Assembly (NCBI GenBank): GCA_030456445.1
Contig: JAKDNM010000003.1
Coordinates: 4,981 to 68,980 of the forward strand
Reading direction: 5' to 3'
Length of the DNA stretch: 64,000 nucleotides
DNA from: Hyphomicrobiales bacterium
GTDB taxonomy: Bacteria; Pseudomonadota; Alphaproteobacteria; Rhizobiales; Rhizobiaceae
The translations under genes and the position numbers were made by a program. The notes below the pieces were generated by a model. That model had not been told where the DNA came from. It saw only the letters and a program-made list of their open reading frames with translations, and searched no databases. This document shows, piece by piece, positions 25,433 through 51,692 of the stretch (position 1 is the first letter of the stretch; the number at the start of each line of letters is the position of its first letter).

Positions 25433-25443
25433 AGCCAATGAGA

Positions 25444-26048: not shown

Positions 26049-26093
26049 ATCGGGAACTAACCGGTTCCGACAGACTGTTTTGGGAGGAGCAGC

Positions 26094-27572: not shown

Positions 27573-27642
27573 CCGAGTGCCGCCGCGATCCGTCGCAGCT
27601 TCGAGAACGGATGCCAATCGAGCCAACCGAAAGAGAGATCGC

Positions 27643-28533: not shown

Positions 28534-28552
28534 AGAGCAGGCAGGAACGGCA

Positions 28553-32461: not shown

Positions 32462-33403
32462 TTGGGCCCGACGGTCGAACATCTCCTTCAAACCCTGTCG
32501 ACCGGCATCCTTGTAGGGTGCCTTTACGGCCTGCTATGCGTTGGCCTTGCCTTCATCTTCGGCATCATGCGTGTCATCAACTTCGCTCAAGGCGATTTCA
32601 TGATGCTGGGCATGTATATCGCCGTAGGAGTGACACTGTCGTTCCTCGGGTTTCTTGGCGCATCCGCACCTTTCGTCGCTGCCCTCATCGCCGGCATCGT
32701 GATGTTCCTGCTGGGATATCTGCTTCACCTGCTGCTCATTTCGCGCACCACGGGCATGCGCATGAGCACAGAACTCGACAGTCACCAGTCACAACTGATC
32801 CTTACGCTCGGCGTCGCCCTCTTCCTTCAGAACGGAATGTTGTTCCTCGTCGGATCGGCTCCGCTCGCGCAGATCAGCAGCCTGTCCTATTCCGCCTGGC
32901 AGATTCCGCTGCTCTATGACGACGTCAGCGCGGTCTTCATCAACAAGGCCCGTTTCCTGGACGCGCTCGCCGCCGTTCTCATTTCGGTCTGCCTGTTCGC
33001 GCTCATGCGCTATACGCGCATGGGCAAGTCGCTGCGGGCGGCCGCGGAAGACCCGGAAGCCGCCCTCTATATGGGCATCGACGTCGACAAGGCGCATCGG
33101 ATCGCATTCGGCCTCGGGGCCGCGATTGCCGGCATCGCGGGCGGTCTTATCGTCCTTTATTATCCGGCTCAGCCCTATGTCGGTCTCGATTTCATCATCA
33201 TAATGTATGCCGGAGTGGTCCTCGGCGGGATGGGAAGCGTCGAGGGCGCGTTCTGGGGTGGCATGACAATCGGCCTGGTGCAGCAGCTTGCCACCCTGGT
33301 CATACCGTTACAGTTGCAGAACGCGGCCATCTTCGTCGTCTTCGTCCTGATCCTGCTCGTGCGCCCCAACGGCCTGTTCGGCCGAAGCGTGGAGCGTGCC
33401 TGA
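32462..33403 (+). CDS. Branched-chain amino acid-type ABC permease (LivH-like)
   Basis: GIMRVINFAQGDF, TRMGKSLRA, VVLGGMGS; TTG start. Confidence 0.9.
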   Translation: MGPTVEHLLQTLSTGILVGCLYGLLCVGLAFIFGIMRVINFAQGDFMMLGMYIAVGVTLSFLGFLGASAPFVAALIAGIVMFLLGYLLHLLLISRTTGMRMSTELDSHQSQLILTLGVALFLQNGMLFLVGSAPLAQISSLSYSAWQIPLLYDDVSAVFINKARFLDALAAVLISVCLFALMRYTRMGKSLRAAAEDPEAALYMGIDVDKAHRIAFGLGAAIAGIAGGLIVLYYPAQPYVGLDFIIIMYAGVVLGGMGSVEGAFWGGMTIGLVQQLATLVIPLQLQNAAIFVVFVLILLVRPNGLFGRSVERA

Positions 33404-35181
33404 TGGAAAAGAAGCGCGCTGCCCTTTACCGTTCGCTGCTGATCATATTCGCGCTCGTTGCGCTGTGCCTGCTGCTGAGTTTCGCTACCAACAACAACTA
33501 TTACCGCCTGATGCTGGCCGTCATCCCGATCTGGGCGGTCCTGGGGATCTCCTGGAACGTGTTTTCGGGATATAGCGGCCTGATCTCATTCGGCCATGCG
33601 GCATTCTTCGGCGTCGGCGCCTACACGGTGACGCTCGGCCTGGTGAATTTCGGGCTTACGCCGTGGATTGGCGTACCACTCGGAGCGATCGTCGGCGCGC
33701 TTACGGCCGGCCTGATCGGCATCCCGACATTCAGGCTGCGCGGCGTCTATTTCGCGCTCGCAATGCTCGCCTATCCGTTATCGATGGTCTACGTCTTCGA
33801 TTGGCTAGGGTTGCAGGAAATCACTCTGCCGATGATGCGGGAGAATGGTCCCGCCTACATGCAGTTTACCGACAATCGCTGGTATCAGGTCGTCTCCCTC
33901 TCGCTGTTCATCGTCGCGATCCTGACATGCCTCTTCATCGAGCGCTCCCGCTTCGGCCGCAGTCTTCTGGCGATCAAGCAGAACGAACTGGCGGCGGAGG
34001 CCTGCGGTGTCGACACGTTCAAGTGGAAACTCTACGCAATCCTGATAAGCGGTGCGATGGCCGGTGCTGCCGGCGGTCTGTTCGCGGTGATCCAACTCGT
34101 GGTCACGCCCGCATCCGTCTTCGGGCTCGTCATCTCCGCCCAGGCGATGATACTGACCTTGTTCGGGGGGGCCGGGATCATCTGGGGGCCGGTGATCGGC
34201 GCGGCGGTCCTGCTTCCCTTGTCGGAAACGCTGCATGCCGAACTCGGCCATCTTGTCCCCGGCATTACGGGAATGGTCTACGGCGCGGCGATCATCCTCG
34301 TCATGGTGCTCGCCCCGGAAGGCATCTACTGGCGGATCAACGATTTACTGAAGCGGCGAAAGGTCTCCGAAACCGGCGACGCGCCCGCTCCCGTTGCGGT
34401 GTCGTCGCGTGCGCCGGCTATGCACGAAACGCGCCGCGCGCGTTCCGGTGAAGTTCTTCTGGGCGTCGACAACATCTCGAAATTCTACGGCGGACTCGGT
34501 GCGGTCAAGGAGGTCGGCTTCGAGATCCATACCGGTGAGATCGTCGGCGTCATCGGCCCCAACGGTGCCGGAAAAACGACGCTGTTCAATATCCTGAACG
34601 GGCTCATTCAGCCGAGCAGCGGCAGGGTTGTATTCAATGGAATCGACATCACGTCGCTCAAGCCGAACCGGCGCTGCGCTGCGGGGATCGGGCGGACGTT
34701 CCAGGTCGTCAGGTCATTTCCGCGCATGACGGTCGAGGAAAATGTTCTCATTGGCGCCTATGTCCGCGCAGAGAATGAAGGCGATGCGTGGCGCCGCGCC
34801 GCGGAGGCTTTAGGCACGGTCGGGCTGACAGGTCGGGCGCACGCCCTCGCCGGATCCATAAGCACCAAGGAATTGAGGTTGATGGAACTCGCCCGCGCGC
34901 TGGCGGGGGATCCCCGATTGCTTCTGCTCGACGAGCCGCTTGCAGGCCTTGGCGCAGACGAGGCGAGCGAACTGACCGACATATTGAAGCGGCTTGCGAG
35001 CGGCGGCCTGACGATCGCCATCATCGAGCACACGATGCAGGCAATGGTCGATCTTGCCGACCGGATGATCGTGCTCGACCACGGGGTCCTCCTGACCGAA
35101 GGCGCACCCGAGCAGGTCACGCGCGACCCTCATGTCATAGAGGCATATCTCGGCCGCAAATGGGCTGCCAAACATGCTTAA
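33403..35181 (+). CDS. Liv-type ABC permease-ATPase fusion (LivM-LivG-like)
   Basis: GYSGLISFGHAAFFG permease, then GPNGAGKTT Walker A and LLLLDEP Walker B. Confidence 0.9.
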   Translation: MEKKRAALYRSLLIIFALVALCLLLSFATNNNYYRLMLAVIPIWAVLGISWNVFSGYSGLISFGHAAFFGVGAYTVTLGLVNFGLTPWIGVPLGAIVGALTAGLIGIPTFRLRGVYFALAMLAYPLSMVYVFDWLGLQEITLPMMRENGPAYMQFTDNRWYQVVSLSLFIVAILTCLFIERSRFGRSLLAIKQNELAAEACGVDTFKWKLYAILISGAMAGAAGGLFAVIQLVVTPASVFGLVISAQAMILTLFGGAGIIWGPVIGAAVLLPLSETLHAELGHLVPGITGMVYGAAIILVMVLAPEGIYWRINDLLKRRKVSETGDAPAPVAVSSRAPAMHETRRARSGEVLLGVDNISKFYGGLGAVKEVGFEIHTGEIVGVIGPNGAGKTTLFNILNGLIQPSSGRVVFNGIDITSLKPNRRCAAGIGRTFQVVRSFPRMTVEENVLIGAYVRAENEGDAWRRAAEALGTVGLTGRAHALAGSISTKELRLMELARALAGDPRLLLLDEPLAGLGADEASELTDILKRLASGGLTIAIIEHTMQAMVDLADRMIVLDHGVLLTEGAPEQVTRDPHVIEAYLGRKWAAKHA

Positions 35182-35881
35182 GGTCGATCATCTCTCCGTC
35201 GCCTATGGCGGCCTGACGGCCCTGTCCGACATCTGCCTGGAAGTCCGGGCAGGCGAACTCGTCTCGGTGGTCGGTCCCAACGGTGCCGGGAAATCGACAC
35301 TGTTCAAAGCGATCTCCGGTGTTGTGCGGGCCGGCTCGGGTTCGGTCACTTTCGAGGGTGAAGACATCCTGCAGACGCGGCCGTTCCAACGGGCGCATGC
35401 CGGCATCGCCCACGTCCCCGAGGGCCGGCATGTCTTCCCCGCCATGAGCGTGCAGGAAAACCTGGAGATGGGCGCCTATGCCCTTGCGGATGCAAGGAAG
35501 CGCGAGGAGCTCTTCGAGCGGATATTCGCACTGTTTCCGATCCTTGCCGAACGCCGCCGACAGTATGCCGGGACCCTTTCGGGCGGCGAACAGCAAATGC
35601 TCGCCATCGGACGCGGGCTGGCCTCGGCGCCGAAGCTGATGATGTTCGACGAGCCGTCCATGGGGCTGGCGCCCGCCGTCGCCGACACGATCTTCGAGCG
35701 CATCGCCCAACTCCACAAGGAGGACGGCATGACGATCCTGCTCGTGGAGCAGCGGGTCGCCGAGGCGATGGAGAATTGCGACCGCGGTTATGTCCTGCAG
35801 ACCGGTCGCATCGTGATGAGCGGGACTTATGAGGAATTGTCGTCCGACGACAATGTTCGCCGAGCCTACCTCGGCATGTAA
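35174..35881 (+). CDS. Liv-type ABC ATPase (LivF-like)
   Basis: GPNGAGKST, LSGGEQQM, MFDEPSMG. Confidence 0.92.
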   Translation: MLKVDHLSVAYGGLTALSDICLEVRAGELVSVVGPNGAGKSTLFKAISGVVRAGSGSVTFEGEDILQTRPFQRAHAGIAHVPEGRHVFPAMSVQENLEMGAYALADARKREELFERIFALFPILAERRRQYAGTLSGGEQQMLAIGRGLASAPKLMMFDEPSMGLAPAVADTIFERIAQLHKEDGMTILLVEQRVAEAMENCDRGYVLQTGRIVMSGTYEELSSDDNVRRAYLGM

Positions 35882-35898
35882 CCAAGGGAGGAATACGC

Positions 35899-37125
35899 AT
35901 GAACCGGAAAACAGGGTTGCTGGCAGCAGTCTTCGGCACCGCAATGCTCATCTCGATGGCGGGAGCGTCAGCTCAGGATGCCAAAGAGATCGAGATCGCG
36001 GCCGTCATGCCATTGAGCGGGCCGTGGGCGCGCCTCGGCGAAGAATCGAAAATTGGCGCCGAACTCGCAGTTAAGCAGATCAACGAGAATGGAGGCATCA
36101 AGGCGCTCGGCGGCGCCAAGCTGAAACTCGTCGTCGTCGACGGCGGCGATTCTCCCGACAAGTTCAAGAACGCCACGCAACGTCTCGTCTCCGAGCATCC
36201 GGATCTCGCCGGCGGCATGGGAGCCTACGTGTCCTCGTTCACGCTGGCCGTTACCGAGGTGACTGAGCGGGCCGGTATTCCGTGGCTGACGCTGTCCTAT
36301 TCGCCCAAAATTACGGATCGCGGCTTCAAGCACGTATTCGCGACTTCGCCGACCGCGGTCAAGCAGGCAGACGACGGCATGCCGGCCATCATCGATATGG
36401 CCAAGCAGGCGACCGGCAAGGCGCCGACGACAGTCGGCATCGTCATGGACAACACCCCTTCGCCGGTGGGCTTCACGAAGAACATGCATGGAGACGGTCT
36501 GAAGAAATACGGTCTCGACCTCGTGGTCGACGAGCAGTTCACGCCGCCGCTTTCCGATTGCGGACCGCTGATGCAGAAGGTACGCGCCGCTCGCCCGGAT
36601 TTTCTCCTCCTGCTTCTGACCGCCACGCCCGACATCAAGCTTTGCCTGGAGAAGCTGACCGAAATCGGCCTTCCGCGCACGCGGCTGCCGATCGTCAACA
36701 ATGGCGGCGTACTGGGTTCGCCAGACCTGCTTAAGGTGATGGGCAAGGACCTGCTCGAAGGATCGATCTTCATCACGGCCAACTGGGGCGCCAAGGGCCA
36801 GGAGGATTTCATCAAGAAATTCGAAGACGAGACCGGCGAGAAATGGGTCACGCAGGACAGCATCTCCAATTACGGACACGTGATGCTGCTGGCCGCCGCG
36901 ATGGAGATGGCCAAGTCGGCCGATCCGGAGAAGGTCAACGAGGCTCTGCATTCCATGGACATCTCCGATGGCGCCGCCACGTTTTTTCCGGGTGGCCATG
37001 TCAAGTTCGCGGAGAACGGTTTGCGCGAGGAGGCGCCTCTCGTGATCGTGCAATGGCAGAACGGTGTGCCCGTCACTGTCTGGCCCAAGGAATCAGCGCA
37101 GGCCGAGCCTGTCTGGCCGCAGTAA
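35899..37125 (+). CDS. Liv-type ABC substrate-binding protein
   Basis: Signal peptide, VMPLSG, INENGGIKALGG. Confidence 0.9.
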   Translation: MNRKTGLLAAVFGTAMLISMAGASAQDAKEIEIAAVMPLSGPWARLGEESKIGAELAVKQINENGGIKALGGAKLKLVVVDGGDSPDKFKNATQRLVSEHPDLAGGMGAYVSSFTLAVTEVTERAGIPWLTLSYSPKITDRGFKHVFATSPTAVKQADDGMPAIIDMAKQATGKAPTTVGIVMDNTPSPVGFTKNMHGDGLKKYGLDLVVDEQFTPPLSDCGPLMQKVRAARPDFLLLLLTATPDIKLCLEKLTEIGLPRTRLPIVNNGGVLGSPDLLKVMGKDLLEGSIFITANWGAKGQEDFIKKFEDETGEKWVTQDSISNYGHVMLLAAAMEMAKSADPEKVNEALHSMDISDGAATFFPGGHVKFAENGLREEAPLVIVQWQNGVPVTVWPKESAQAEPVWPQ

Positions 37126-37277: not shown

Positions 37278-38072
37278 ATGTCCTCGCATGATCCCGTCAA
37301 GACTGCGGCACGCACGTTGGACCTCTTCGAGATCTTCGCGCGCGAAAGGCGACCTCTATCGCTTACCGAGATCGCGCACTACCTGAATTCGCCCGTATCG
37401 AGCTGCCATGCACTTGTGCGCACATTCCAACTCCGCGGCTATGTTTATGTGCTGGACGCACGAAAGCGTGTTTACCCTACGAAACGTCTCGCCACGATGG
37501 CAGAATCCATACTCAAGCATGATCCCGTGCTGGAGCGCGTCTCGCCGATGTTGCACGATCTGCGGGATCTGACCCGTGAAACAGTTCTGCTCGGCAAACG
37601 GCAATCGGATTGGGTCGTCTATCTTGATGTGGTCGAAGGTGGTCAAACGATCCGCTACATGGCCACGCCGGGAGATACGAAGCCTCTCCATTCGAGTGCA
37701 ATTGGCAAGTCGCTGCTTGGCAGCCTGGATTCCCCTGAACTGAACCGGCTGCTGGCGCGGCTGGATATGCCGCGGGTGACACCGCGCACGATTACCGAGC
37801 GCGAAGCACTGAGGGAAGCCATCGCTTCGGGTCGCCAGAAAGGTTATTTCGTCACGCGCGGCGAGAATGTGACCGATGTGATGGCCATAGCAGCCGCCCG
37901 GTCGATAGGCGGAGAATTTTACGGCCTTGCGCTTGCAGGGCCGATGGCCCGGATGGAAGCCAGGTTTGAGCAATGCGTCGATGCCCTGACAAGCGCTGCC
38001 CGCAGGTTGGAAGGGCTTGACAGCGCAGTCCGCGGTCTAACAGCGCGTTCCAGCGGGTCGATTCCGTTATGA
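37278..38072 (+). CDS. IclR family regulator 1
   Basis: N-terminal HTH RTLDLFEIF, PLHSSAIGK, TRGEN. Confidence 0.92.
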   Translation: MSSHDPVKTAARTLDLFEIFARERRPLSLTEIAHYLNSPVSSCHALVRTFQLRGYVYVLDARKRVYPTKRLATMAESILKHDPVLERVSPMLHDLRDLTRETVLLGKRQSDWVVYLDVVEGGQTIRYMATPGDTKPLHSSAIGKSLLGSLDSPELNRLLARLDMPRVTPRTITEREALREAIASGRQKGYFVTRGENVTDVMAIAAARSIGGEFYGLALAGPMARMEARFEQCVDALTSAARRLEGLDSAVRGLTARSSGSIPL

Positions 38073-38122: not shown

Positions 38123-38151
38123 TTGACGCTAATGTTTCGATATGTGAGAAT
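38123..38151 (+). promoter_or_regulatory. Sigma70-like promoter of the mutase module with overlapping TTCGATATGTGA box
   Basis: TTGACG 38123-38128, 17-bp spacer, TG-n-GAGAAT 38143-38151. Confidence 0.5.
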
Positions 38152-38177
38152 AAGTTTCAGTATATTGAAAGATAGAC

Positions 38178-38915
38178 ATGGCAAACGCACGATCCGCCTC
38201 CCGCGCGCTCAGCATGTTCGAAACGTTCGGTGCCGAAGGGCGGCCGCTGCTGCTGACCGAGCTCGCGCCGTTGATCGACGTGCCGCTCTCGAGCTGTCAC
38301 GGGCTTGTCAGGACGCTGCTCGACCGGGGTTATCTCTACGCCTTGAGCCGCCGGCGCGGCTTCTATCCGACGCGCAAGCTCTACACGCTGGCCCAGACAA
38401 TCGCCGCCAAGGACAGCTATCTGCAGCGTCTGGCGCCCTTTTTGGAGAGGCTGCGCGACGATAGCGGCGAGACCGTCATCGTCGGCACGTTGCAGGGCGA
38501 GGCGGTGCTCTATCTCGAGGTGCTGGAGGGGCCGAAGACGATCCGCTACTCGGCGCGACCCGGCGATTTCAAACCCCTGCATTCGAGCGCGATCGGCAAG
38601 GCCCTGCTTTCGGCCGGCGGCGAGGCGCTGTGGAAGAAGCTGGCCGCCCGGCCACTGTCTGATGTGACGGTCAACACCATCACCGATCCGGCGCATCTGC
38701 GCGACAATCTGGAGGAGGGCGCGCGGCGCGGCTACTTCGTCACGCGCGGCGAGAACGTGTCCGACGTGACGGCGATCGCTACGGCGCTGGAGGTCGAGGG
38801 GATGACGCTGGGCATCGCGATCGCCGGCCCGAGCTATCGCATGGCCGAGACGATCGAGGCGCAAACCGGCAGGCTGCTGCAGGCCCGCTCCGAGATCGAG
38901 GAGAGGCTCGGTTGA
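38178..38915 (+). CDS. IclR family regulator 2
   Basis: RALSMFETF HTH, PLHSSAIGK, TRGEN; paralog of iclR1. Confidence 0.92.
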   Translation: MANARSASRALSMFETFGAEGRPLLLTELAPLIDVPLSSCHGLVRTLLDRGYLYALSRRRGFYPTRKLYTLAQTIAAKDSYLQRLAPFLERLRDDSGETVIVGTLQGEAVLYLEVLEGPKTIRYSARPGDFKPLHSSAIGKALLSAGGEALWKKLAARPLSDVTVNTITDPAHLRDNLEEGARRGYFVTRGENVSDVTAIATALEVEGMTLGIAIAGPSYRMAETIEAQTGRLLQARSEIEERLG

Positions 38916-39691
38916 CGATCGCCATGGAACATCTGCGGATATCGTCTTTGGAAGGCCGCCTCGACGTGGTGATCGACCGGCCGCATGCGCGCAATGCGCT
39001 GAGCATCGGCACGCTGGAGGAGGTCGCCGCGGTTTTCACCGAGTATGCCGCGGACGAAAGCGTCAAGGTCGCCGTGATTTCCGGCGCCGGCGACAAGGCC
39101 TTCGCGGCGGGAGGCGACATCAAGGAACTGAGCACGCGTCGCTCCGCCGAGGACGCGGCGGCGCTCTTCGATCTGGGCAGCAGGGCGACGGAAGCGGTCC
39201 GCCGGTTTCCCGTGCCCGTCGTGGCGGCGCTCAACGGCGTGGCGCTCGGAGGTGCTGCGGAACTTGCCGTCTCCTGCGACTTCCGTCTCGCCGCGCGCCA
39301 TGCCGCGATCGGCTTCGTCCAGGCGCAACTGGCGCTGACGACGGGGTTCGGCGGCATCGCCAGCCTGCAGGACCTGATCGGGGTCCGCCGCGCGCTGCGG
39401 ATGCTCCTCGACGGCACGATCCTGCCCGCCGAGGAGGGGCGCGAGGCGGGGCTCGTGGATGCGGTGGCCGGCGAGGGCGAGGCGCTCGAGGATCTGGTCG
39501 CGCGCTTCATCGAGCCGATGCTGAAACGGCCGGTCGCGCTGCTGCGCGACATGAAGGCGGTTGCGCTGGCTGGCGAGGACGCGGCGGGCCGGGCGGCTGT
39601 GGCGAAGGTCGAACGCGAGCGCTTCGTCCGCGCCTGGGTCAGCGAGGAACATTGGGCGGCGGCCGAGAAGGTGCTGTCGCGCGGCAGATGA
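38912..39691 (+). CDS. Enoyl-CoA hydratase/isomerase family protein
   Basis: IDRPHARNAL, FAAGGDI, NGVALGGAAE; second catalytic Glu replaced (GFVQAQL). Confidence 0.9.
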   Translation: MTIAMEHLRISSLEGRLDVVIDRPHARNALSIGTLEEVAAVFTEYAADESVKVAVISGAGDKAFAAGGDIKELSTRRSAEDAAALFDLGSRATEAVRRFPVPVVAALNGVALGGAAELAVSCDFRLAARHAAIGFVQAQLALTTGFGGIASLQDLIGVRRALRMLLDGTILPAEEGREAGLVDAVAGEGEALEDLVARFIEPMLKRPVALLRDMKAVALAGEDAAGRAAVAKVERERFVRAWVSEEHWAAAEKVLSRGR

Positions 39692-39701
39692 GGACACATC
39701 G

Positions 39702-41339
39702 ATGGTAGCGGTCAGGAAGGTCGAGGAGAAGGCAAAAGCCGTACAGCCGGAGCCGGCAGGCATTGCGACAACGACGCCGTCCGGCATCAAGGCGCCGCGG
39801 GTCGCGACGCCCGACATGGTGGGCGCGGCCATAGCCGAATTGCCCGGCCAATATCCCTTCACGCGCGGCATCTTCCCGGACGGGTTCCGCGGCCGCACCT
39901 GGACGATGCGGCAATATTCGGGCTTCGGCACGGCCGAGGAATCGAACGAGCGTTACGCATTTCTGCTGCGCCAGGGCCAGACGGGCCTTTCGGTCGCTCT
40001 CGACCTGCCGACGCAATGCGGCTACGATCCGACCGATCCGATGGCGCGCTCGGAAATCGGCAAGGTCGGCGTCTCGCTGTCGAATCTGTCGGAAATGGAG
40101 ATCCTGTTCGACGGCATCGACCTGTCGAAGATCTCGACCTCCTTCACCATCAACGGCACGGCCGCGCTGATCTATGCGATGTATGTGGCCTGCGCGGAAC
40201 GGCGTGGCCTGGACCCTTCCGTGCTGACCGGGACGATCCAGAACGACATCCTGAAGGAATATGTCGCGCGCGGCACGTGGATCTTCCCGGTGCGGCCTTC
40301 GATGCGGCTGACGGCCGATTCCATCCTCTACGCCAACCGCGCGACGCCACGCTTCAACCCGATCTCGATCGCCGGCGCGCATATGCGCGATGCGGGCTGC
40401 AACGCGGTCGAGGAGATGGCCTATACGCTCGCCAACGGGCTTGCCTATGTGGACGAGCTCATTCGGCGCGGCGGCGATGCGGAGAAATTCGCTAAACGTC
40501 TGTCTTTCTTCTTCTACGTGCATATGGATTTGTTCGAGGAGGTGGCGAAGTTCCGCGCCGGCCGTCGCATCTGGGCCCGGCTGATGAAGGAGCGCTATGG
40601 CGTGACCGACCCGAAAGCGCAGATGTTCCGCTTCGGCGTGGTCTGCGGCGGGTCTTCGCTGGTCGCGCCGCAGCCGCAGAACAACATCGTGCGTGTCGCT
40701 GTCGAGACGATGGCGGCGGTGCTTTCGGGCGCCCAATCGATATTTACCTGCGCATATGACGAGGCGTTCCAGATACCGACCGAGCATTCGGCCGAAATCG
40801 CGTTGCGCACACAGCAGATCATCGCGCTGGAGAGCGGCATCGCGCGCAGCGTCGATGCACTCGGAGGCTCGCACTATGTCGAGTGGCTGACCGACGAGAC
40901 TGAGAAGCGCATCCTCGAGAAGATGGAGGAGCTCGACAGCCATGGCGGCGCGGTGGCCGCCATCGAGGAAGGCTGGCTGCAGATGCGCATCGCCCAGCGC
41001 GCCCATGAGCGCAAGCGCGACATCGACTCCGGCGCCTTTCCGATCGTCGGTCTCAATGTCCATACCGACGACGACGCCGACAAGGGCCCGAGCGAGGTCT
41101 TTCGCGTCGACCCGCAGGCGAGCCGGCGCGTCCTCGAGAAATTCCAGAAGACGATGGATTCCCGTGACAACCGCGCGGTGGAGCGCTCGCTGGAACGGCT
41201 AGGCAAGGCTGCCGCCGACGATGGCGAGAACCTGATGCCGTATCTCGTCGAATGCTGCCACGCCTACGCGACGATCGGAGAGATGGTCGCGTGCCTGAAA
41301 GAGAACTGGGGCGAATTCCAGGAGCCGATCCGCCTATGA
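39702..41339 (+). CDS. B12-dependent acyl-CoA mutase, large (substrate-binding) subunit, non-canonical specificity residues
   Basis: PGQYPFTRG, WTMRQYSGFG, DLPTQCGYD, GTIQNDILKEY, YDEA; lacks fused B12 domain. Confidence 0.92.
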   Translation: MVAVRKVEEKAKAVQPEPAGIATTTPSGIKAPRVATPDMVGAAIAELPGQYPFTRGIFPDGFRGRTWTMRQYSGFGTAEESNERYAFLLRQGQTGLSVALDLPTQCGYDPTDPMARSEIGKVGVSLSNLSEMEILFDGIDLSKISTSFTINGTAALIYAMYVACAERRGLDPSVLTGTIQNDILKEYVARGTWIFPVRPSMRLTADSILYANRATPRFNPISIAGAHMRDAGCNAVEEMAYTLANGLAYVDELIRRGGDAEKFAKRLSFFFYVHMDLFEEVAKFRAGRRIWARLMKERYGVTDPKAQMFRFGVVCGGSSLVAPQPQNNIVRVAVETMAAVLSGAQSIFTCAYDEAFQIPTEHSAEIALRTQQIIALESGIARSVDALGGSHYVEWLTDETEKRILEKMEELDSHGGAVAAIEEGWLQMRIAQRAHERKRDIDSGAFPIVGLNVHTDDDADKGPSEVFRVDPQASRRVLEKFQKTMDSRDNRAVERSLERLGKAAADDGENLMPYLVECCHAYATIGEMVACLKENWGEFQEPIRL

Positions 41340-41767
41340 TGATCGAAACAGCAACCGAGCCGCGCGCGGCTTCGCCCCTTCGCGGCAAGCGCATCCTGGT
41401 GGCGAAGCCCGGCCTCGACGGCCACGACGCCGGCGCCAAGGTGGTGGCGCTCGCCATGCGCGACGCCGGCGCGGAGGTGATCTATACCGGTCTGCGCAAA
41501 AGCCCCGCCTATATCGCGCGTGTCGCGATCGACGAGGATGTCGACGCGGTCGGCCTCTCGATCTTGTCGGGCAGCCACAAGGAACTCGTCGCCGAAACGA
41601 TCGCGGCCCTCAAGGAAGAGGACGCGGGCGACATCGCTCTCTTCGTCGGCGGCACGATACCGGCCGAGGACATCGATGCGCTCATCGAAATGGGCGTCAG
41701 GACGGTGTTCACCGCCGACATGAAGCTCGACGACGTGGTCGACGCGGTGGCGAAGGCGCTCGCATGA
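41336..41767 (+). CDS. Cobalamin-binding small subunit of acyl-CoA mutase
   Basis: KPGLDGHDAG (DxHxxG), GLSILSGSH, VGGTIP. Confidence 0.95.
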   Translation: MMIETATEPRAASPLRGKRILVAKPGLDGHDAGAKVVALAMRDAGAEVIYTGLRKSPAYIARVAIDEDVDAVGLSILSGSHKELVAETIAALKEEDAGDIALFVGGTIPAEDIDALIEMGVRTVFTADMKLDDVVDAVAKALA

Positions 41768-42885
41768 CAGGTCCGCTCGCCGGCATCCGCGTCATCGAGA
41801 TCGGCCACATGCTGATGGGGCCGTATTGCGGCATGCTGCTTGCCGATCTCGGCGCGGAAGTCATCAAGGTCGAGCCGCCCGACGGCGACATCGCAAGGCG
41901 CGTCAGCCCACATATGGTGGGCGAGCACAACGCCTATTTCGCAAGCCTCAACCGCAACAAGAAGAGCGTCGTCATCGACCTGGCGAGCGAGATGGGAAGG
42001 ACGGAACTTGGCCGGCTCATCTCTAGCGCTCGCGCCTTGCTGACCAATTTGCGGCCGTCGGCCATCCGCAAGCTCGGCCTCACCTATGATGATCTGAAAA
42101 GCTGGAACCCCAAGCTCGTCTGCGTGGCGCTGACCGGCTACGGGTTGGAGAGCCCCTACAGCGAGCGCCCGGCCTACGACTACGTGATCCAGGCGCTGAC
42201 CGGCGTCATGAACCTGACGGGCGATCCGGACGGGCCGCCGACCAAGACCGGCTATTCCGCCGTCGACAATTCCGCCGGCATCATGGGCGCCGTGGGTTTG
42301 CTCGCCAAGCTTGTCGAGGGCAAGGGCGGGCAGGTCGACATCGCCATGTACGACGTCATGCTCTCGCAACTGAACTACCTCGCAGGCGCATGGCTGAATG
42401 CCGGCGAGACCGCGCGGCGCATCGAGCGTTCGTCGCATCCCTATATCGTGCCGGCGCAGATATTCCCGACGCGCGACGGCTGGGTGACGCTCTTCATCAC
42501 GCACGACGATTTCTGGCGCCGCTTCGCCGGAGAGGTGGGCGAAGGGCACTGGCTCACCGATCCGCGCTTCGCCACCATGGCCGGCCGCCGCTCCAATCGT
42601 GCGCTGGTGCTGGGTGAGATCGAAGCGGCGCTCGCAAACCATGGCACGGATGAACTCGTGGCGCGGCTGACGCCTCTCGGCGTAGTCGTCGCGGGGGTGG
42701 AGACGATGGAGCAGGCGCTTGCGAGCGAGCATGTGCGGGCGCGCGGCATGGTGGCGGAGATCGCGGGCGAGGTGCCGCTGCGCGTGGTCGGCAATCCGAT
42801 CAAGATCTCCGGCATGGAGGAAGGGTTCGCCCCGCCGCCGGCGCTTGGCCAGCACGGCGCGCTGGTGAAGGAAGGCGGCGGATGA
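41764..42885 (+). CDS. CaiB/BaiF family III CoA-transferase
   Basis: IRVIEIG, NRNKKS, AYDY, AVDNSAG catalytic Asp. Confidence 0.9.
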   Translation: MTGPLAGIRVIEIGHMLMGPYCGMLLADLGAEVIKVEPPDGDIARRVSPHMVGEHNAYFASLNRNKKSVVIDLASEMGRTELGRLISSARALLTNLRPSAIRKLGLTYDDLKSWNPKLVCVALTGYGLESPYSERPAYDYVIQALTGVMNLTGDPDGPPTKTGYSAVDNSAGIMGAVGLLAKLVEGKGGQVDIAMYDVMLSQLNYLAGAWLNAGETARRIERSSHPYIVPAQIFPTRDGWVTLFITHDDFWRRFAGEVGEGHWLTDPRFATMAGRRSNRALVLGEIEAALANHGTDELVARLTPLGVVVAGVETMEQALASEHVRARGMVAEIAGEVPLRVVGNPIKISGMEEGFAPPPALGQHGALVKEGGG

Positions 42886-43778
42886 ACGCGCGGGCGCAGA
42901 TGACGCTCGACAGGCGCGCGCTCGGACGGGCTCTGTCGCGCGCGGCCAATGCCAGCGTGGAGGAGATATTGGCGGCCGACGCGGGCGAGGCTGCGACACG
43001 CGCGCGCCGCATCGGCGTGACCGGGCCGCCCGGCGCCGGCAAGAGCACCCTAATCGCCGCGCTCGCCCGTTATCGTCTGGAGCACGCCGGGCGTGTCGCT
43101 ATCATCGCCGTCGATCCGTCGAGCTCGAAAACGCATGGTTCGGTGCTTGGGGACCGCATCCGCATGGACCGCCTCGTCGACGATCCGCGGGTCTACATCC
43201 GCTCGCTGGCGAGCCGTGGCGCCAGTGACGGGCTGGCGGAGAACCTGCCCGAGATCCTGGCCGTGCTCGATGATTTCGGCTTCGACGAGATCATCCTCGA
43301 GACGGTCGGCGTCGGCCAGTCGGAATTCGCCGTGCGCGACCTTGTCGATATCGAGCTTCTGGTGATGGCGCCGGGCGCGGGCGATCAGATCCAGGCCATG
43401 AAGGCGGGCATCATCGAGACGGCCGACATCTATGTGGTCAACAAGGCCGACCAGCCCGGCGCGGCGCGCGCCGAAACCGAATTGCGCGCAATCCTGACGA
43501 TGACAGCCGGCTCCGCGCCCGTGCCGCCGATCATCAGGGTTCAGGCGGACACCGGTGAGAAGATGGATGAACTCGATGCAGCGATCGAGGATTGCGTGCG
43601 CCGCCGCAAGGAGGGGGACGCCGATGCGGTGAGGCGCGGGCGCCATCGCGTCAAGGGTCTCATCGTGCGCCGCCTGAACGAAGTTCTCTTGGATATGCCT
43701 GTCGCCTTGGAGGGCCGGCCGATCCGGGAAGTCTACGACGCGGTCATGGACACGCTGTCGCAACGCACGGGGCCGTGA
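42882..43778 (+). CDS. meaB: MeaB/ArgK-type G3E GTPase, mutase chaperone
   Basis: GPPGAGKST, VDPSS, GDRIRM, ETVGVGQSE, VNKAD. Confidence 0.92.
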   Translation: MNARAQMTLDRRALGRALSRAANASVEEILAADAGEAATRARRIGVTGPPGAGKSTLIAALARYRLEHAGRVAIIAVDPSSSKTHGSVLGDRIRMDRLVDDPRVYIRSLASRGASDGLAENLPEILAVLDDFGFDEIILETVGVGQSEFAVRDLVDIELLVMAPGAGDQIQAMKAGIIETADIYVVNKADQPGAARAETELRAILTMTAGSAPVPPIIRVQADTGEKMDELDAAIEDCVRRRKEGDADAVRRGRHRVKGLIVRRLNEVLLDMPVALEGRPIREVYDAVMDTLSQRTGP

Positions 43779-47812: not shown

Positions 47813-48613
47813 CTACCCGTTCGCCTTCGCGACCGCGCGCTTTGCCATCACCACGACAAGCGCGGCGCGGTAGTCGGAGGAGGCGTGGATGTCCGCCATC
47901 AGGTTCTTCGCGGGGACGGTTACGCCTTCCAGCGCGGAGGCGTCGAACTTCTTCGACAAAGCCGCCTCGATCTCCTTGGAGCGGAAGACGCCGTCTTCGC
48001 CGGCGCCCGTCACCGCGACGCGCACATCGTCCTTGCCCTTGGCGACGAAGACGCCCGTCATCGCGTAGCGCGAAGCGGGGTTGCGGAACTTCTCGTAGCC
48101 GGCCTTGGCGGGCGCCGTGAATTTCACCGCCGTGACGATCTCGTCGTCTTTCAGCGCCGTCTCGAAAAGGCCGGTGAAGAATTTCGCCGCAGCGATCTCG
48201 CGCTTGTTGGTGACCACCGTCGCGTCGAGCGCGATAAGCGCCGCCGGGTAGTCCGCCGCCGGGTCGTTGTTGGCGATCGAGCCGCCGATCGTGCCTTTGT
48301 GGCGGACGGCCGGGTCGCCGATATGGGCGGCGAGATCGGAGAACGCCGCGCAGACGGCCTTGAGTTTTTCATTCGAGGCCACTTCGCCATGGGTGGTACC
48401 GGCGCCGATGGTGACGTTCTTGCCGGACACCTTGATGCCCTTCATGTCGGCGATGTGGCAGAGATCGACCAGGTCGCTTGGCGCGGCGAGCCTCGTCTTC
48501 ATGGCCGGCAGGAGCGTCATGCCCCCGGAGAGGAATTTTGCGTCCTCGCCCTTCTTGACCAGCTTGACGGCATCGGCGACGGAAGAGGCGCGGTGGTACG
48601 TGACGGAATACAT
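47813..48613 (-). CDS. coxM: CoxM-like FAD-binding subunit (form II)
   Basis: [37 protein letters not shown]. Confidence 0.92.
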
Positions 48614-48642
48614 GGGTCGGTCTCCCTTTGGGATACGGTCTT

Positions 48643-48707
48643 GGGCAATCGGCATTCGGCAGACGGTAGATTCTTTCCTACTGCCGACTGCCTACTCCCG
48701 ATTGCCC
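48643..48707. repeat. Inverted heptamer-repeat hairpin (GGCAGTC/GGCAATC units)
   Basis: GGGCAATCGGCATTCGGCAGACGGTAG ... CTACTGCCGACTGCCTACTCCCGATTGCCC. Confidence 0.65.
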
Positions 48708-48709
48708 CC

Positions 48710-51064
48710 TCAATGCCTTGTCATCGCCTTCAACGACGCCCACACCTTCAGCGGCGTCGCGGGCATGGTCAAATCGTTATCGCCGATGGCGTCGGTGATG
48801 GCGTTCATGACCGCCGGCGGCGAGCCGATCGCGCCGGCCTCGCCGCAGCCCTTCATGCCGAGCGGATTGCCGGGGCAGGGCGTGTTGGAGGTCGACACCT
48901 TGAAGGACGGCAAATCGTCGGCGCGCGGCATGGTGTAGTCCATGTAGCTGGCGGTGACGAGCTGGCCGGAATCCGCGTCGTAGCGGCAGCCTTCGAGCAG
49001 CGCCTGGCCGATGCCCTGCGCGACGCCGCCATGGACCTGGCCCTCGACGATCATCGGGTTGATGATGTTGCCGAAATCGTCGGCGGCGACGAACTGGACG
49101 ATCTCGGTCACGCCCGTATCGGGATCGATTTCGACCTCGCAGATGTAGCAGCCGGCGGGGAAGGTGAAGTTCGACGGATCGTAGAACGCCGTCTCCTTCA
49201 GGCCGGGCTCCATGCCGTCGGGCAAATTGTGCGCGGTGTAGGAGGCAAGCGCCACCTGAAACCAGGGCAGGCTCTTGTCGGTGCCGGCGACCTTCAGTTC
49301 GCCGTTCTCGATGACGATGTCGGCCTCGTCGGCTTCCATCAGATGCGCGGCGATCTTCTTGGCCTTGGCCTCGACCTTGTCGAGTGCCTTGGAGATGGCG
49401 CTCATGCCGACCGCGCCGGAGCGCGAGCCGTAGGTGCCCATGCCCATCTGCACCTTGTCGGTGTCGCCATGGACGATGGAAACGCTGTCGATCGGCACGC
49501 CGAGGCGCTGGTTGACCAGTTGCGCGAACGTCGTCTCGTGGCCCTGGCCGTGGCTGTGCGAGCCGGTCAAGACCTCGATCGTGCCGACGGCGTTGACGCG
49601 GACCTCGGCCGATTCCCAAAGCCCGACGCCGGCGCCGAGCGAGCCGACCGCCTTCGACGGCGCGATGCCGCAGGCCTCGATGTAGCAGGAAAAGCCGATG
49701 CCCCTCAGCTTGCCGCGCTTCTTCGCCGCCTCGCGGCGCTTCGGGAAGCCGGCATAATCGGCCTCCTTCATCGCGGCATTGAGCGATGCGCCGAAATCGC
49801 CGGTGTCGTAGTTCATGATGACCGGCGTCTGGTGCGGGAACTGCGTGATGAAGTTGATGCGGCGGAACTCGGCCGGGCTCATGCCGAGTTCGCGCGCCGC
49901 CGTTTCCATCGTGCGCTCGATCAGATAGCACGCCTCGGGCCGGCCTGCGCCGCGATAGGCGTCCACCGGCGCGGTGTTGGTGTAGACGGTGCGTACATTG
50001 GCATGGATCGCCGGGATGTCGTACTGGCCCGACAGAAGCGTCGCGTAGAGATAGGTGGGCACCGAGGAGGAGAAGAGCGACATGTAGGCGCCGAGATTGG
50101 CGATCGTGTCGACCTTGAGCCCGATCACCTTGTTGTTCTTGTCGAGCGCCAGTTGCACTTCCGAGACATGGTCGCGGCCATGCGCGTCGGTGAGGAAGCT
50201 TTCGGTGCGGTCGGCCACCCATTTCACCGGCACGCCGGTGCGCTTGGACGCCCACAGGCAGACGATCTCTTCGGGATAGATGTAGATCTTGGAGCCGAAG
50301 CCGCCGCCGACATCCGGCGCGATGACTCTCAGCTTGTTTTCCGGCGCGACATTGTAGAACGCGCTCATGACGAGGCGGGCGACATGCGGGTTCTGGCTGG
50401 TGGTCCAGCAGGTGTAGTGGTCCTCGGCCTTGTTGTAATGGCCAAGCGCCGCGCGCGGCTCCATCGCGTTGGGGATGAGCCGGTTGTTGACGATATGCAC
50501 CTTCGTAACGTGGGCGGCCTTGGCGATCGCCTCGTCCGTCGCCTTGGCGTCGCCGATCTCCCAGTCGAAGATCAAATTGTTTTCAGCCTCGGGGTGAAGC
50601 TGCGGGGCGCCCTTCTTCAGCGCCTGCACCGCGTCGGTGACGGCCTTCTTCTCCTTGTAGACGACCTCGACGGCCTCGGCGGCGTCGCGCGCCTGTCCCT
50701 TGGTCTCGGCCACGACAATCGCCACCGCGTCGCCGACATAGCGCACTCGGTCGACCGCCAGCGGCGACCACGCGCCCATCTTCATCGGCGAGCCGTCCTT
50801 GGAGTGGATCATCCAGCCGCAGATCAGATTGCCGATGCCGTCGCCCTTGAGCTGCTTGCCGGTAAGCACTCCGATGACGCCGGGCATCGCTTCCGCCGCC
50901 TTCACGTCGATCTTCTTTATGTCCGCATGCGCGTAGGGGCTGCGCACGAACGCCGCATGCTTCATGCCCGGAACGACCATGTCGTCGACATAGCGGCCGG
51001 CGCCGGTGATGAAACGCCTGTCTTCCTTGCGCGCAACGCGTGCGCCAATGCCTTCAACGCCCAT
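48710..51064 (-). CDS. coxL: CoxL-like molybdopterin subunit, form II
   Basis: [19 protein letters not shown], active-site AYRGAGR, GQGHET, KGCGEAG. Confidence 0.93.
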
Positions 51065-51085
51065 CTGAATTCTCCTCCGTGGTGA

Positions 51086-51190
51086 GGCAGTCGGCAATTG
51101 GCAGTCGGCAGTCGAAAAATCTTCGCGCCGAACCCGCTTCCCGATCTCCTCGCGTCAATCCGATTGCCGACCGCCTAATGCCGATTGCCG
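51086..51190. repeat. Inverted heptamer-repeat hairpin (GGCAGTC/GGCAATC units)
   Basis: GGCAGTCGGCAATTGGCAGTCGGCAGTCG ... CGATTGCCGACCGCCTAATGCCGATTGCCG. Confidence 0.65.
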
Positions 51191-51191
51191 G

Positions 51192-51692
51192 TCACGCCGC
51201 CTTCTTCGCCTTGCCCTTGGATCCCTTCGCCATCGTCTTCGATGCCGCCAGCACCGATTTGACGATGTTGTGGTAGCCCGTGCAGCGGCAGATATTGCCT
51301 TCCAGCTCGTGGCGTACCGTCGTCTCGTCGAGCCCTTCGGGGTGGCGCGTGATCATGTCCACCGTGGTCATGATCATGCCCGGCGTGCAGAAGCCGCACT
51401 GCAGCCCGTGATTCTCCTTGAAGGCCACCTGGACCGGGTGCAAATCCGCGCCGTTCGCCAAGCCCTCGATGGTGGTCACCTCCGAGCCGGAGGCCTGCAC
51501 GGCCAGCATGGTGCAGGACTTCACCGCCTTGCCGTCGACATGCACCACGCATGCGCCGCACTGCGAGGTGTCGCAGCCGACATGCGTACCGGTGAGTTCG
51601 AGGTTCTCGCGCAGGAAATGTACCAGGAGCGTCCGGTCCTCGACCGTGCCCGATACTTTCCGGCCATTCACTACCAGCGATACGTCCGACAT
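51192..51692 (-). CDS. coxS: CoxS-like 2x[2Fe-2S] subunit
   Basis: [26 protein letters not shown]. Confidence 0.95.

Follow-up and report, generated by a model that had tools for sequence, protein, structure and literature searches.

A split cobalamin-dependent acyl-CoA mutase with a distinctive predicted substrate pocket is encoded in a widely conserved operon

The ethylmalonyl-CoA mutase Ecm/MeaA (ECM) was reportedly described by Erb and colleagues in 2008. In Escherichia coli, the sbm operon (scpA-argK-scpB-scpC) encodes a methylmalonyl-CoA mutase (MCM), a MeaB-type GTPase, a crotonase-fold methylmalonyl-CoA decarboxylase, and a CoA-transferase. The anaerobic indoleacetate pathway contains the phenylsuccinyl-/benzylmalonyl-CoA mutase IaaGH together with the CoA-transferase IaaL and IaaF (PMC8360864), and the biosynthesis of hydroxamate warheads includes the hexylmalonyl-CoA mutase ActD/MatBQ (PMC5719088). 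Here we analyse an operon encoding a split mutase on the plus strand of a 64,000-nucleotide stretch of DNA from a Hyphomicrobiales bacterium (the whole stretch is referred to as the window), and compare it with these systems.

The operon consists of six genes (38178–43778) that are coupled by start and stop codons that either overlap or are spaced by 10 nt. The content of this span was as originally predicted, but its first gene encodes not an enzyme but an IclR-family regulator (IclR2, 38178–38915; Pfam), the stop codon of which overlaps the start of a gene for a crotonase-fold protein (38912–39691; Pfam ECH_1, 133 bits, with oxyanion-hole motifs and an alignment to 3KQF). There follow the large, substrate-binding subunit of an acyl-CoA mutase (39702–41339; PF01642, 630 bits; TIGR00641, 626 bits) and, joined to it by an ATGA overlap, the small cobalamin-binding subunit (41336–41767; TIGR00640, 138 bits; PF02310), in which the DxHxxG motif reads DGHDAG (residues 28–33). 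The last two genes encode a family III CoA-transferase (41764–42885; PF02515, 375 bits) and a MeaB-type G-protein chaperone for the mutase (42882–43778; PF03308, 242 bits; TIGR00750, 230 bits, below its cut-off of 240.75) with the P-loop GPPGAGKST and an NKAD motif. Profile matches and coordinates thus bear out the claim that the operon has its own B12 subunit, MeaB, and CoA-transferase, and, as also claimed, we found no VOC-type epimerase within it. A second IclR-family regulator (IclR1, 37278–38072; Pfam HTH_IclR and IclR_C, best NCBIfam matches far under cut-off) lies upstream, separate from the operon. Two overlapping sigma-70-like promoter matches (38123–38166, plus strand) just 5′ of IclR2 are weak evidence for a promoter, as two such sites were found and 1.1 ± 1.0 are expected in shuffled sequence.

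Numbered from the ATG at 39702, the mutase large subunit contains the predicted motifs RQYSGF (Y72), KEYVARG (R190), IAGAHM (A226 and H227), FRFGVVCGG (G312 and V314), and FTCAYDEA (C350). Alignment to P. shermanii MutB (1REQ_A) with HMMER, and to 1REQ, E. coli ScpA, and HcmA (4R3U) with MAFFT, put these motifs opposite MCM residues Y89, R207, Y243, H244, H328, Q330, and N366, the literature numbering being recovered after chain-index offsets of +1 for MutB and −11 for HcmA (I90/D117). The carboxylate clamp Y89/R207 (Y72/R190) is retained, as are the catalytic residues H244 (H227) and Q197, whereas A226, G312, V314, and C350 take the place of Y243, H328, Q330, and N366, so that the non-canonical residues do fall where they had been predicted to fall. 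At the same seven positions MCM reads Y R Y H H Q N, HCM reads I Q Y H H Q N, an ICM-like enzyme reads F Q F H H Q N, and the ECM type, represented by a Streptomyces gene for a fused mutase directly 3′ of ccr that was assigned by this gene context, reads Y R Y H G Q P; the last confirms that H328G occurs in ECM. The only PCM-like representative that we saw (P0138) reads A Q Y H H H C, and retains Y243 with an altered residue at the Y89 position. The reference alignments ruled out an identity as MCM, HCM, or ICM. As predicted, the signature fits none of the MCM, HCM, ICM-like, and ECM types, and as far as these alignments can tell, with ECM, auxin-pathway, and alkylmalonyl-CoA mutases represented by sequences assigned from gene context, it is unlike that of any characterised type.

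The signature is not due to chance. In 80 orthologous loci (69–86% identity) from alpha-, beta-, and gammaproteobacteria and Binatia, the Y/R/A/H/G/V positions are invariant; the sole variable one is position 350, at which, with the window sequence included, 81 sequences divide into 71 with C and 10 with A. An actinobacterial clade that is 52% identical to the window mutase has the same signature. We regard it as extremely unlikely that the enzyme is simply a methylmalonyl-CoA or ethylmalonyl-CoA mutase whose active site has drifted neutrally. Such a reading would agree with the public records, which say methylmalonyl-CoA mutase family, and with the retention of Y89, R207, and H244 and the H328G common to ECM, but the clade fixes different residues at seven otherwise conserved positions (F117L, S241A, Y243A, H328G, Q330V, T331C, and H364F), all of them changes to smaller or more hydrophobic residues, while the MCM representatives across our library read YAQRYHHQN with no variation. 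The large subunit also scores 532 against the NCBIfam MCM equivalog (cut-off 876), its clade stands apart in the tree, canonical scpA genes are found in the same genera, and the enzyme has neither the fused architecture nor the ccr context of ECM, nor its Y243, Q330, and N366P. PGAP names for family members are generic, with no specific annotation in existence, and our literature search found no paper describing the family, in keeping with the suggestion that it is undescribed.

N366C is common to two groups of mutases assigned by context to bulky substituents, the iaa-type (aryl) and NRPS-cluster (alkyl) enzymes, and comes in both with a small residue at 243 (Y243G in one of them) or at 328–332. 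Because of these parallels, and of the shift to small or hydrophobic residues in the pocket, a bulky substituted malonyl- or succinyl-CoA, as in the original prediction, is a reasonable candidate substrate; the signature itself proved less singular than had been thought, since a survey of the superfamily yielded dozens more signature classes in which Y89/R207 are retained and which are equally uncharacterised, the present family being one of their number. Since the predicted pocket differs from every characterised type, the substrate is probably a bulky branched dicarboxylic acid.

The operon is real and widely conserved. Of the complete loci in the set of 80, nearly all contain a core made up of the crotonase-fold protein and both mutase subunits. 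This core is usually accompanied by a family III CoA-transferase, MeaB, an IclR regulator (adjoining the cassette in most loci, and either IclR1-like or IclR2-like, an IclR1-type paralogue replacing IclR2 in some), and a carboxylate transporter. Beyond this cassette the majority of loci have no further conserved enzyme, and for that reason the whole route to central metabolism must be covered by three enzymes. We tentatively propose, with confidence a little short of even, that the enzyme is an AdoCbl-dependent, ECM-like mutase that interconverts a hydrophobic, probably branched, substituted succinyl-CoA and a 2-alkylmalonyl-CoA within an sbm-like catabolic module. A free substituted dicarboxylate would be imported and loaded with CoA by the family III CoA-transferase, and the mutase, cofactor-loaded through MeaB, would shift the thioester carbon to yield an alkylmalonyl-CoA; the crotonase-fold protein would decarboxylate this to an ordinary acyl-CoA destined for beta-oxidation or the leucine pathway, under control of the IclR regulator. 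That the substrate is carboxylated and hydrophobic is inferred, as are the way in which flux runs and the function of the crotonase-fold protein as a decarboxylase.

The CoA-transferase fits a dicarboxylate substrate, its nearest relatives by sequence being dicarboxylate:succinyl-CoA types. Its best NCBIfam matches (220–241 bits, all under cut-off) are of the succinate-glutarate, CoA:oxalate, and succinyl-CoA:mesaconate types, the first being the best; its PDB matches are 4ED9, YfdE, and SUGCT, with benzylsuccinate CoA-transferase at only 103 bits. Asp168 is a candidate catalytic residue from motif position only. In the crotonase-fold protein, said in the original prediction to miss one catalytic Glu, the first (E117) is indeed invariant and the second is replaced by Q137, a trait of all 40 aligned orthologues (Q, or H in three). 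We propose that it is an alkylmalonyl-CoA decarboxylase, with epimerase, isomerase, or hydratase as alternative roles; decarboxylation is unproven because identity to E. coli ScpB, which has the same Glu pattern, is only 25% and ScpB Tyr140 is replaced by T or P.

A quite improbable alternative is an HCM/ICM-type migration in which the second substituent is carboxymethyl and the crotonase-fold protein then (de)hydrates or isomerises what the mutase forms, as in the pairs methylsuccinyl-CoA and glutaryl-CoA, citramalyl(C1)-CoA and 3-hydroxyglutaryl-CoA, or 2,2-dimethylsuccinyl-CoA and 3-methylglutaryl-CoA. The succinate-glutarate match of the CoA-transferase would suit it, as would the link of these products to leucine or glutaryl-CoA routes, the split HCM-type architecture, the rank of HcmA as closest solved structure (497 bits against 360–421 for MCMs), and a Binatia operon in which the crotonase-fold protein occupies the place of LiuC. 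However, Y89/R207 are placed for a carboxylate on the rearranging carbon itself and not one carbon beyond, the hydroxyl-binding Asp117 of HCM is replaced by Ala, the second Glu required by hydratases is missing, and the strand motif is ECM-like rather than HCM-like.

Leucine-pathway genes neighbour the cassette in three lineages: the Binatia operon contains 3-methylcrotonyl-CoA carboxylase (MCC) beta and alpha subunits (761 bits to 3U9R), and isovaleryl-CoA dehydrogenase adjoins the cassette in loci L080 (a true one, 647 bits to 4O5M) and L026. These neighbours hint at 2,2-dimethylsuccinyl-CoA, and the most specific candidate for the proposed succinyl-to-malonyl route would be its conversion to isopropylmalonyl-CoA and then to isovaleryl-CoA. 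The Binatia MCC link is a single evolutionary event, and liu genes may lie nearby for other reasons; to our knowledge, 2,2-dimethylsuccinate has no abundant natural occurrence.

Upstream of the regulators, on the plus strand, a LivHMGF/K-type ABC transporter with a periplasmic binding protein (32462–37125; translations and SBP homologues) is a possible uptake system for the substrate or a precursor. The same block (77–89% identity) adjoins the cassette in locus L060; elsewhere the cassette is flanked by other transporters (DctPQM in at least 29 loci, and TAXI, TctC, other ABC, or MFS systems). Packed immediately upstream of the window transporter are plus-strand genes that may act as feeders (Pfam, NCBIfam): an aldehyde dehydrogenase (ALDH, 26094–27572), an HIBADH-like beta-hydroxyacid dehydrogenase (27577–28533), and a fused hydantoinase A/B of the ATP-dependent lactamase type (extending to 32458; its start is uncertain). 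Homologues adjoin the cassette in other loci (ALDH in 5, HIBADH-like in 4, hydantoinase in 5).

The HIBADH-like and ALDH neighbours could equally serve to make a substituted malonate. Flux would then be opposite to our proposal: a 2-substituted malonate, imported or derived from a 2-substituted 3-hydroxy acid by these two enzymes, would be activated with CoA, the crotonase-fold protein, in place of a VOC-type epimerase, would give the (2R)-isomer, and the mutase would produce a substituted succinyl-CoA for oxidation resembling the ethylmalonyl-CoA pathway. Known mutases have an equilibrium that favours the succinyl form. The reading would also account for the missing epimerase, the HIBADH-like, ALDH, or SDR genes that recur beside the cassette, and the malonate bound in the nearest solved DctP homologue (about 40% identity), an observation that also speaks for our own proposal; and locus L026, where MeaB is followed in the same operon by HIBADH-MFS-ALDH-MaoC hydratase-acyl-CoA dehydrogenase, fits it and counts against the direction that we propose. 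We nevertheless consider it unlikely: a dehydrogenase, hydratase, or lyase for a substituted succinyl-CoA is lacking from most loci, and we know of no crotonase-fold alkylmalonyl-CoA epimerase and of no use of the ethylmalonyl-CoA pathway in many host genera (Xanthobacter, Bradyrhizobium, Paraburkholderia).

The hydantoinase would suit an arylsuccinyl-CoA mutase, for instance one interconverting (2-aminophenyl)succinyl-CoA and (2-aminobenzyl)malonyl-CoA in aerobic or variant auxin/oxindole degradation, by analogy with the Aromatoleum iaa operon and its IaaL/IaaGH/IaaF logic (PMC8360864). The window also holds an XDH-family Mo enzyme, an acyl-CoA dehydrogenase with a GGG motif, an AMP ligase, several family III CoA-transferases, and a PF04199 cyclase-family protein, and in one of the five loci the hydantoinase is directly 5′ of the crotonase-fold gene. 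This strikes us as very improbable, however, as an IaaF-type dehydrogenase accompanies the cassette in none of the 80 loci, most loci have a TRAP transporter only, the Mo-enzyme genes of the window lie on the opposite strand past unrelated genes, and a genuine iaa-type cluster (L087, with hydantoinase B, GGG-motif dehydrogenase, mutase, Mo enzyme, CoA-transferase) encodes a different mutase and other proteins only 25–43% identical to their window counterparts.

Set against described enzymes, the window mutase shares with ECM, as represented by the ccr-adjacent gene, Y89, R207, H244, H328G, and the strand FR(Y/F)GV (FRFGVVC against FRYGVQV), and its predicted substrate likewise has a carboxylate and an alkyl group on the carbon receiving the migrating thioester. 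At 39% identity it differs from ECM, a fused polypeptide encoded next to ccr with Y243 and Q330 intact and N366P, in being split, in Y243A/Q330V/N366C, and in its CoA-transferase/crotonase/transporter cassette. HcmAB (4R3U; 46% identity) resembles it in having large and small subunits with MeaB; HCM, the substrate of which is hydroxylated and non-carboxylated, has I90, D117, and Q208, replaced by Y, A, and R in the window enzyme, and keeps intact Y243, H328, Q330, and N366, all four of which are altered here.

IaaGH and IaaL likewise combine a mutase for a succinyl-CoA bearing a bulky hydrophobic substituent with a family III CoA-transferase. The iaa-type mutase, for which cluster L087 stands in for the Aromatoleum IaaG sequence, falls in the same large clade and shares Y89, R207, and N366C, but is 42% identical, reads Y R Y H M G C with Y243 retained, and is accompanied, in place of the crotonase-fold protein, by an acyl-CoA dehydrogenase that is decarboxylating and has a GGG motif, together with a Mo-dehydrogenase. 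The ActD/MatBQ type, for which the R. fascians pFiD188 gene set (mutase, ccrA, B12 small subunit, meaB, and mce beside NRPS genes) stands in, is similarly a split enzyme of the HCM subclass proposed for 2-alkylmalonyl-CoA, with Gly at Y243 and N366C; at 43% identity, the stand-in differs in Y89L and H328Q/Q330N and in its biosynthetic setting among CCR, VOC epimerase, and NRPS genes.

The sbm operon unites the same four functions as the cassette, and ScpB, like the crotonase-fold protein, has the first crotonase Glu without the second. ScpA, however, is a canonical fused MCM and ScpC is a family I-type transferase, whereas that of the cassette belongs to family III; the resemblance is one of functional analogy rather than orthology.

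Six plus-strand genes within 38178–43778 are translationally coupled and encode, in order, an IclR regulator (38178–38915), a crotonase-fold protein (38912–39691; here the cassette crotonase), the large subunit of an acyl-CoA mutase (39702–41339; PF01642, TIGR00641), a small cobalamin-binding subunit joined to it by an ATGA overlap (41336–41767; TIGR00640), a family III CoA-transferase (41764–42885) and a MeaB G-protein (42882–43778), with all six assignments backed by Pfam and NCBIfam. Another IclR gene (37278–38072) is located shortly before these six, two weak promoter-like matches are found 5′ of the operon, and an Rfam scan of the window returned no cobalamin riboswitch and no other RNA family. 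The large subunit, which has the homologous TIM-barrel domain for substrate binding, covers the full length of the PF01642 profile (630 bits), scores 626 bits against TIGR00641 (cut-off 304) and matches HcmA with an E value of 1e-148. Its cobalamin-binding domain is a separate subunit of 143 aa (TIGR00640, 138 bits) that carries the base-off/His-on DxHxxG motif as DGHDAG (residues 28–33). H227 and Q180, which correspond to the catalytic His244 and Gln197, are invariant in orthologues, and the operon supplies a dedicated MeaB gene (42882–43778). By sequence criteria, the window enzyme is thus an AdoCbl-dependent acyl-CoA mutase of the MCM superfamily, for which 1,2-rearrangement activity is predicted.

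The original prediction had read this enzyme as a split B12 mutase of apparently new specificity, acting on a bulky substituted malonyl- or succinyl-CoA, and every motif and residue number on which it drew is right. We aligned the window enzyme with P. shermanii MutB, E. coli ScpA and HcmA, a mapping validated by its recovery, once the tag offset is taken into account, of I90 and D117 as numbered in the HcmA literature. Y72, R190, A226, H227, G312, V314 and C350 correspond to MCM Y89, R207, Y243, H244, H328, Q330 and N366, respectively, and in this alignment non-canonical residues indeed stand at positions 243, 328, 330 and 366 when compared to MutB, ScpA and HcmA. Across 80 orthologous loci from species-representative genomes the residues Y/R/A/H/G/V are invariant, while position 350 (counting the window as well) is C in 71 of 81 and A in the other 10. 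The signature is therefore a fixed trait of the family. Seven family-invariant substitutions, F117L, S241A, Y243A, H328G, Q330V, T331C and H364F, depart from residues common to MCM, HCM, ICM and ECM, and all seven are toward smaller or more hydrophobic residues.

We rebuilt reference signatures from sequences, in the order Y89/R207/Y243/H244/H328/Q330/N366. The window enzyme (Y R A H G V C) differs from 1REQ, ScpA and all MCM-type representatives (Y R Y H H Q N), and its score against the NCBIfam MCM equivalog is 532 bits (cut-off 876), which argues against MCM. As the ECM reference we used a 689-aa fused mutase from Streptomyces BHT-5-2, identified by synteny with ccr directly upstream (Y R Y H G Q P); a candidate reference, the mutase representative P0127, was found not to be ECM, and in two actinobacterial plasmids PKS clusters, and no mutase, were found near ccrA. 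The Streptomyces mutase, ECM by synteny, does have the G at position 328 that the original prediction gives for ECM. It is 39% identical to the window enzyme and shares with it only H328G and an FRxGV strand (FRYGVQV as opposed to FRFGVVC), and Y243, Q330, N366P, the fused B12 domain and the ccr context are all absent from the window enzyme. The possibility that the enzyme is an ordinary MCM or ECM is, on these grounds, highly improbable. It is not HCM, as it has Y72, A99 and R190 where HCM has I90, D117 and Q208 in place of Y89, A116 and R207 (HcmA, I Q Y H H Q N). In ICM/IcmF Y89 is replaced by Phe and in PCM by a smaller residue, with R207 replaced by Gln in both; an ICM-like representative reads F Q F H H Q N and a PCM-like one (P0138) A Q Y H H H C, whereas the window enzyme retains both Y and R.

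A further reference is the iaa-type mutase P0154 (Y R Y H M G C), which is encoded on a metagenomic contig (L087) within a compact iaa-like auxin-degradation cluster consisting of hydantoinase B, an ACAD, the mutase, a xanthine-dehydrogenase-type Mo enzyme and a family III CoA-transferase. Its B12 domain is fused N-terminally, and the cluster's dehydrogenase has the GGG motif described for the acyl-CoA dehydrogenase IaaF (PMC8360864). Orthology of the window enzyme to IaaGH is rejected, with the caveat that this reference is an iaa-like metagenomic cluster and not that of Aromatoleum, and none of the 80 loci has an IaaF-type ACAD beside the cassette. The presence of iaa-like parts in the window would fit an arylsuccinyl-CoA substrate and an auxin-related role, but P0154 is only 42% identical to the window enzyme and has a different signature, and we consider this explanation very improbable.

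Homologues of the window enzyme at 69–96% identity are plentiful in metagenomes and occur in Xanthobacter, Bradyrhizobium, Paraburkholderia, Roseovarius, Diaphorobacter (on a plasmid), Steroidobacteraceae, Rhodocyclaceae, marine gammaproteobacteria and Binatia, with identity of at least 69% maintained across three proteobacterial classes. A search of sequencing runs turned up DNA metagenomes only and no RNA data. The public names of the homologues are generic (e.g. ‘methylmalonyl-CoA mutase family protein’), as are those in clusters of other signature classes. Among the clusters of a 50%-identity library, the closest one outside the family is an actinobacterial clade with the same signature (52% identity), and all remaining ones are at most 48% identical. 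The best 150 large-subunit representatives from this library display dozens of signatures, only a handful of which belong to characterised enzymes; many of the other classes keep Y89 and R207 while positions 243, 328, 330 and 366 vary. A neighbour-joining tree places the family within an uncharacterised radiation, close to the iaa-type group. The proposed novelty of the signature thus holds with respect to characterised enzymes, yet the existence of dozens of further signature classes means that it is not a lone oddity. The genomic contexts of two other uncharacterised classes (P0125 and P0299) bear no relation to the cassette. Directly upstream of one orthologous cassette (locus L053, 4192–9203) are genes for a B12 subunit, two large-subunit paralogues and MeaB; the paralogues have the signatures V L Q H H Q D and L N Q H H Q D, without the carboxylate clamp, and this set is another uncharacterised specificity. 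A literature search, which did not reach several key subscription papers, found no paper on the family or on the candidate reactions.

The core of the cassette, invariant across loci, comprises the crotonase and the two mutase subunits, and most loci also have the IclR regulator, the family III CoA-transferase and MeaB. A carboxylate uptake system usually lies 3′. It is of the DctPQM TRAP type in at least 29 loci and of the TAXI-TRAP type in roseobacters and Marinobacter; TctC, MFS or LivK-type ABC systems occur in others, the window included. The closest solved DctP homologue is 4MCO (about 40% identity), which has malonate in its site. In some loci (L024 and L037) an acetyl-CoA-hydrolase-type transferase and an AMP ligase substitute for the family III transferase. 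Bradyrhizobium manausense has two copies of the cassette about 30 kb apart on one contig (L032 and L024), one with a family III CoA-transferase, a TRAP transporter and the C350A variant, the other with an ABC transporter, an acetyl-CoA-hydrolase-type transferase, an AMP ligase, an ALDH and an SDR instead. Recurrent neighbours include an aldehyde dehydrogenase (5 loci), an HIBADH-like dehydrogenase (4 loci) and a hydantoinase-type lactamase (5 loci; directly upstream of the crotonase in L009), all of which are present in the window. Methylcrotonyl-CoA carboxylase (MCC) subunits are part of the cassette operon in Binatia (761 bits to 3U9R), and true isovaleryl-CoA dehydrogenases adjoin the cassette in loci L080 and L026. 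The L026 operon continues after MeaB with genes for an HIBADH-like protein, an MFS transporter, an ALDH, a MaoC-type hydratase and an acyl-CoA dehydrogenase.

The oxyanion-hole motifs are intact in the cassette crotonase, as is E117, the first catalytic Glu, but at the position of the second Glu all 40 aligned orthologues, including those adjacent to MCC, have Q or, in three cases, H. Because the second Glu is absent, and because E. coli ScpB, a crotonase-fold methylmalonyl-CoA decarboxylase, has the same Glu pattern, the protein is unlikely to be a standard hydratase; decarboxylase, epimerase and isomerase are its candidate functions. The same absence, even beside MCC, excludes LiuC (3-methylglutaconyl-CoA hydratase). 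In gene content the operon matches the E. coli Sbm module, which converts succinate to propionate and is composed of mutase, MeaB/ArgK, crotonase-fold decarboxylase and CoA-transferase. It is not orthologous to ScpB/ScpC, as the crotonase is only 25% identical to ScpB and has T or P in place of Tyr140, and ScpC belongs to the acetyl-CoA hydrolase/transferase family whereas the window transferase belongs to family III.

In most loci the transferase, the mutase and the crotonase are the sole enzymes, so these three must convert the imported acid to a common metabolite. This limit, together with the precedent of sbm with its same four functions, leads us to favour a substituted-succinate route, to which we give a little less than an even chance. 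The CoA-transferase would convert a substituted succinate to the substituted succinyl-CoA, the mutase with MeaB would rearrange this to a 2-alkylmalonyl-CoA, and the crotonase would decarboxylate the latter to an acyl-CoA and CO2. The operon content of L026 and the HIBADH and ALDH neighbours speak instead for the reverse direction, with the crotonase as an epimerase, which we regard as unlikely. An HCM-like migration acting on a carboxymethyl-substituted substrate is improbable. Substrates of the tricarballylate type are unlikely because the pocket changes are hydrophobic without exception, and HMG-CoA and 3-methylglutaconyl-CoA are excluded on chemical reasoning, as they have no hydrogen on the beta-carbon. 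Within the substituted-succinate route, the resemblance of the strand to that of ECM, the predicted additional hydrophobic space and the recurrence of MCC and isovaleryl-CoA dehydrogenase genes beside the cassette suggest, as the most specific candidate, the interconversion of 2,2-dimethylsuccinyl-CoA and isopropylmalonyl-CoA followed by formation of isovaleryl-CoA, an assignment we infer and consider rather unlikely to be exactly right. It is similarly doubtful, though conceivable, that the family represents a third ‘quaternary-carbon-resolving’ B12 mutase after those for 2-hydroxyisobutyryl-CoA and pivalyl-CoA, and the crotonase a new crotonase-fold alkylmalonyl-CoA decarboxylase. If true, soil and marine proteobacteria would possess a widespread, self-contained path for gem-dimethyl diacids, terpenoid-derived or synthetic, into the leucine pathway.

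The window contains a second CoA-centred catabolic cluster (7830–19815, plus strand), which encodes a crotonase (7830–8594), DctP (8745–9794), an AMP ligase (10185–11771), a PF04199 ‘cyclase’ family protein (11768–12634), a family III CoA-transferase (12665–13837), an SCP-x-type thiolase-like protein (14721–16160), an acyl-CoA dehydrogenase (16669–17889), a TetR regulator (17941–18600) and another CoA-transferase (18634–19815). Kynurenine formamidase and isatin hydrolase are members of the PF04199 family. The dehydrogenase has GGG at the catalytic YEG motif, as in IaaF, but is only 30% identical to an iaa-type IaaF; it belongs to a very conserved unnamed family (more than 100 metagenome proteins at 75–90% identity), and a search with it matched only a highly conserved ACAD family distinct from Aromatoleum IaaF. 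The plus-strand block at 19869–28533 encodes a DctPQM TRAP system, an FMO-like flavin monooxygenase, a Zn alcohol dehydrogenase, a carboxymuconolactone-decarboxylase-family protein and, at its end, an aldehyde dehydrogenase and an HIBADH-like dehydrogenase. It looks like an alcohol/ketone-to-acid oxidation module and may feed the mutase cassette. A single 1338-aa hydantoinase A and B fusion (28442–32458, plus strand) is packed directly against ABC transporter genes; its best NCBIfam matches, caprolactamase CapA/CapB, are under the cut-off, and its start is probably later than 28442, since the open reading frame overlaps the preceding gene. On the minus strand, 47813–51692 encodes a three-subunit Mo enzyme of the xanthine dehydrogenase family (FAD, MoCo and probable 2Fe-2S subunits), separated from the cassette by genes for a GFO/IDH/MocA oxidoreductase and a 6-phosphogluconate dehydrogenase.

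To our knowledge, only about half a dozen B12 acyl-CoA mutase specificities have been characterised (MCM, ECM, ICM/IcmF, HCM/RCM and PCM); the aryl- and alkyl-succinyl types are proposed specificities. Each specificity added so far has led to a catabolic pathway or a reaction of biotechnological use. The family described here is sharply defined by an invariant signature and a compact cassette and is common in tractable cultured genera (Xanthobacter, Bradyrhizobium, Paraburkholderia and Roseovarius), so the question of its substrate is directly testable. An answer would reveal what the partner family of single-Glu crotonases and the linked TRAP, TAXI and TctC binding proteins do, and how positions 243, 328, 330 and 366 tune specificity.

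Set against known systems, the window enzyme shares its carboxylate clamp with MCM and ECM, and N366C with two bulky-substituent mutases, the iaa-type enzyme and the alkyl-type mutase located in an NRPS cluster on R. fascians pFiD188 (L R G H Q N C). The latter likewise has a small residue in place of Y243. The R. fascians gene adjoins ccrA, a B12 subunit gene, meaB and an epimerase gene, a set that matches the ActD/MatBQ alkylmalonyl-CoA mutase system (PMC5719088). The finding is real; what it adds is a specificity variant among the enzymes of a well-known family, not a system of a new kind.
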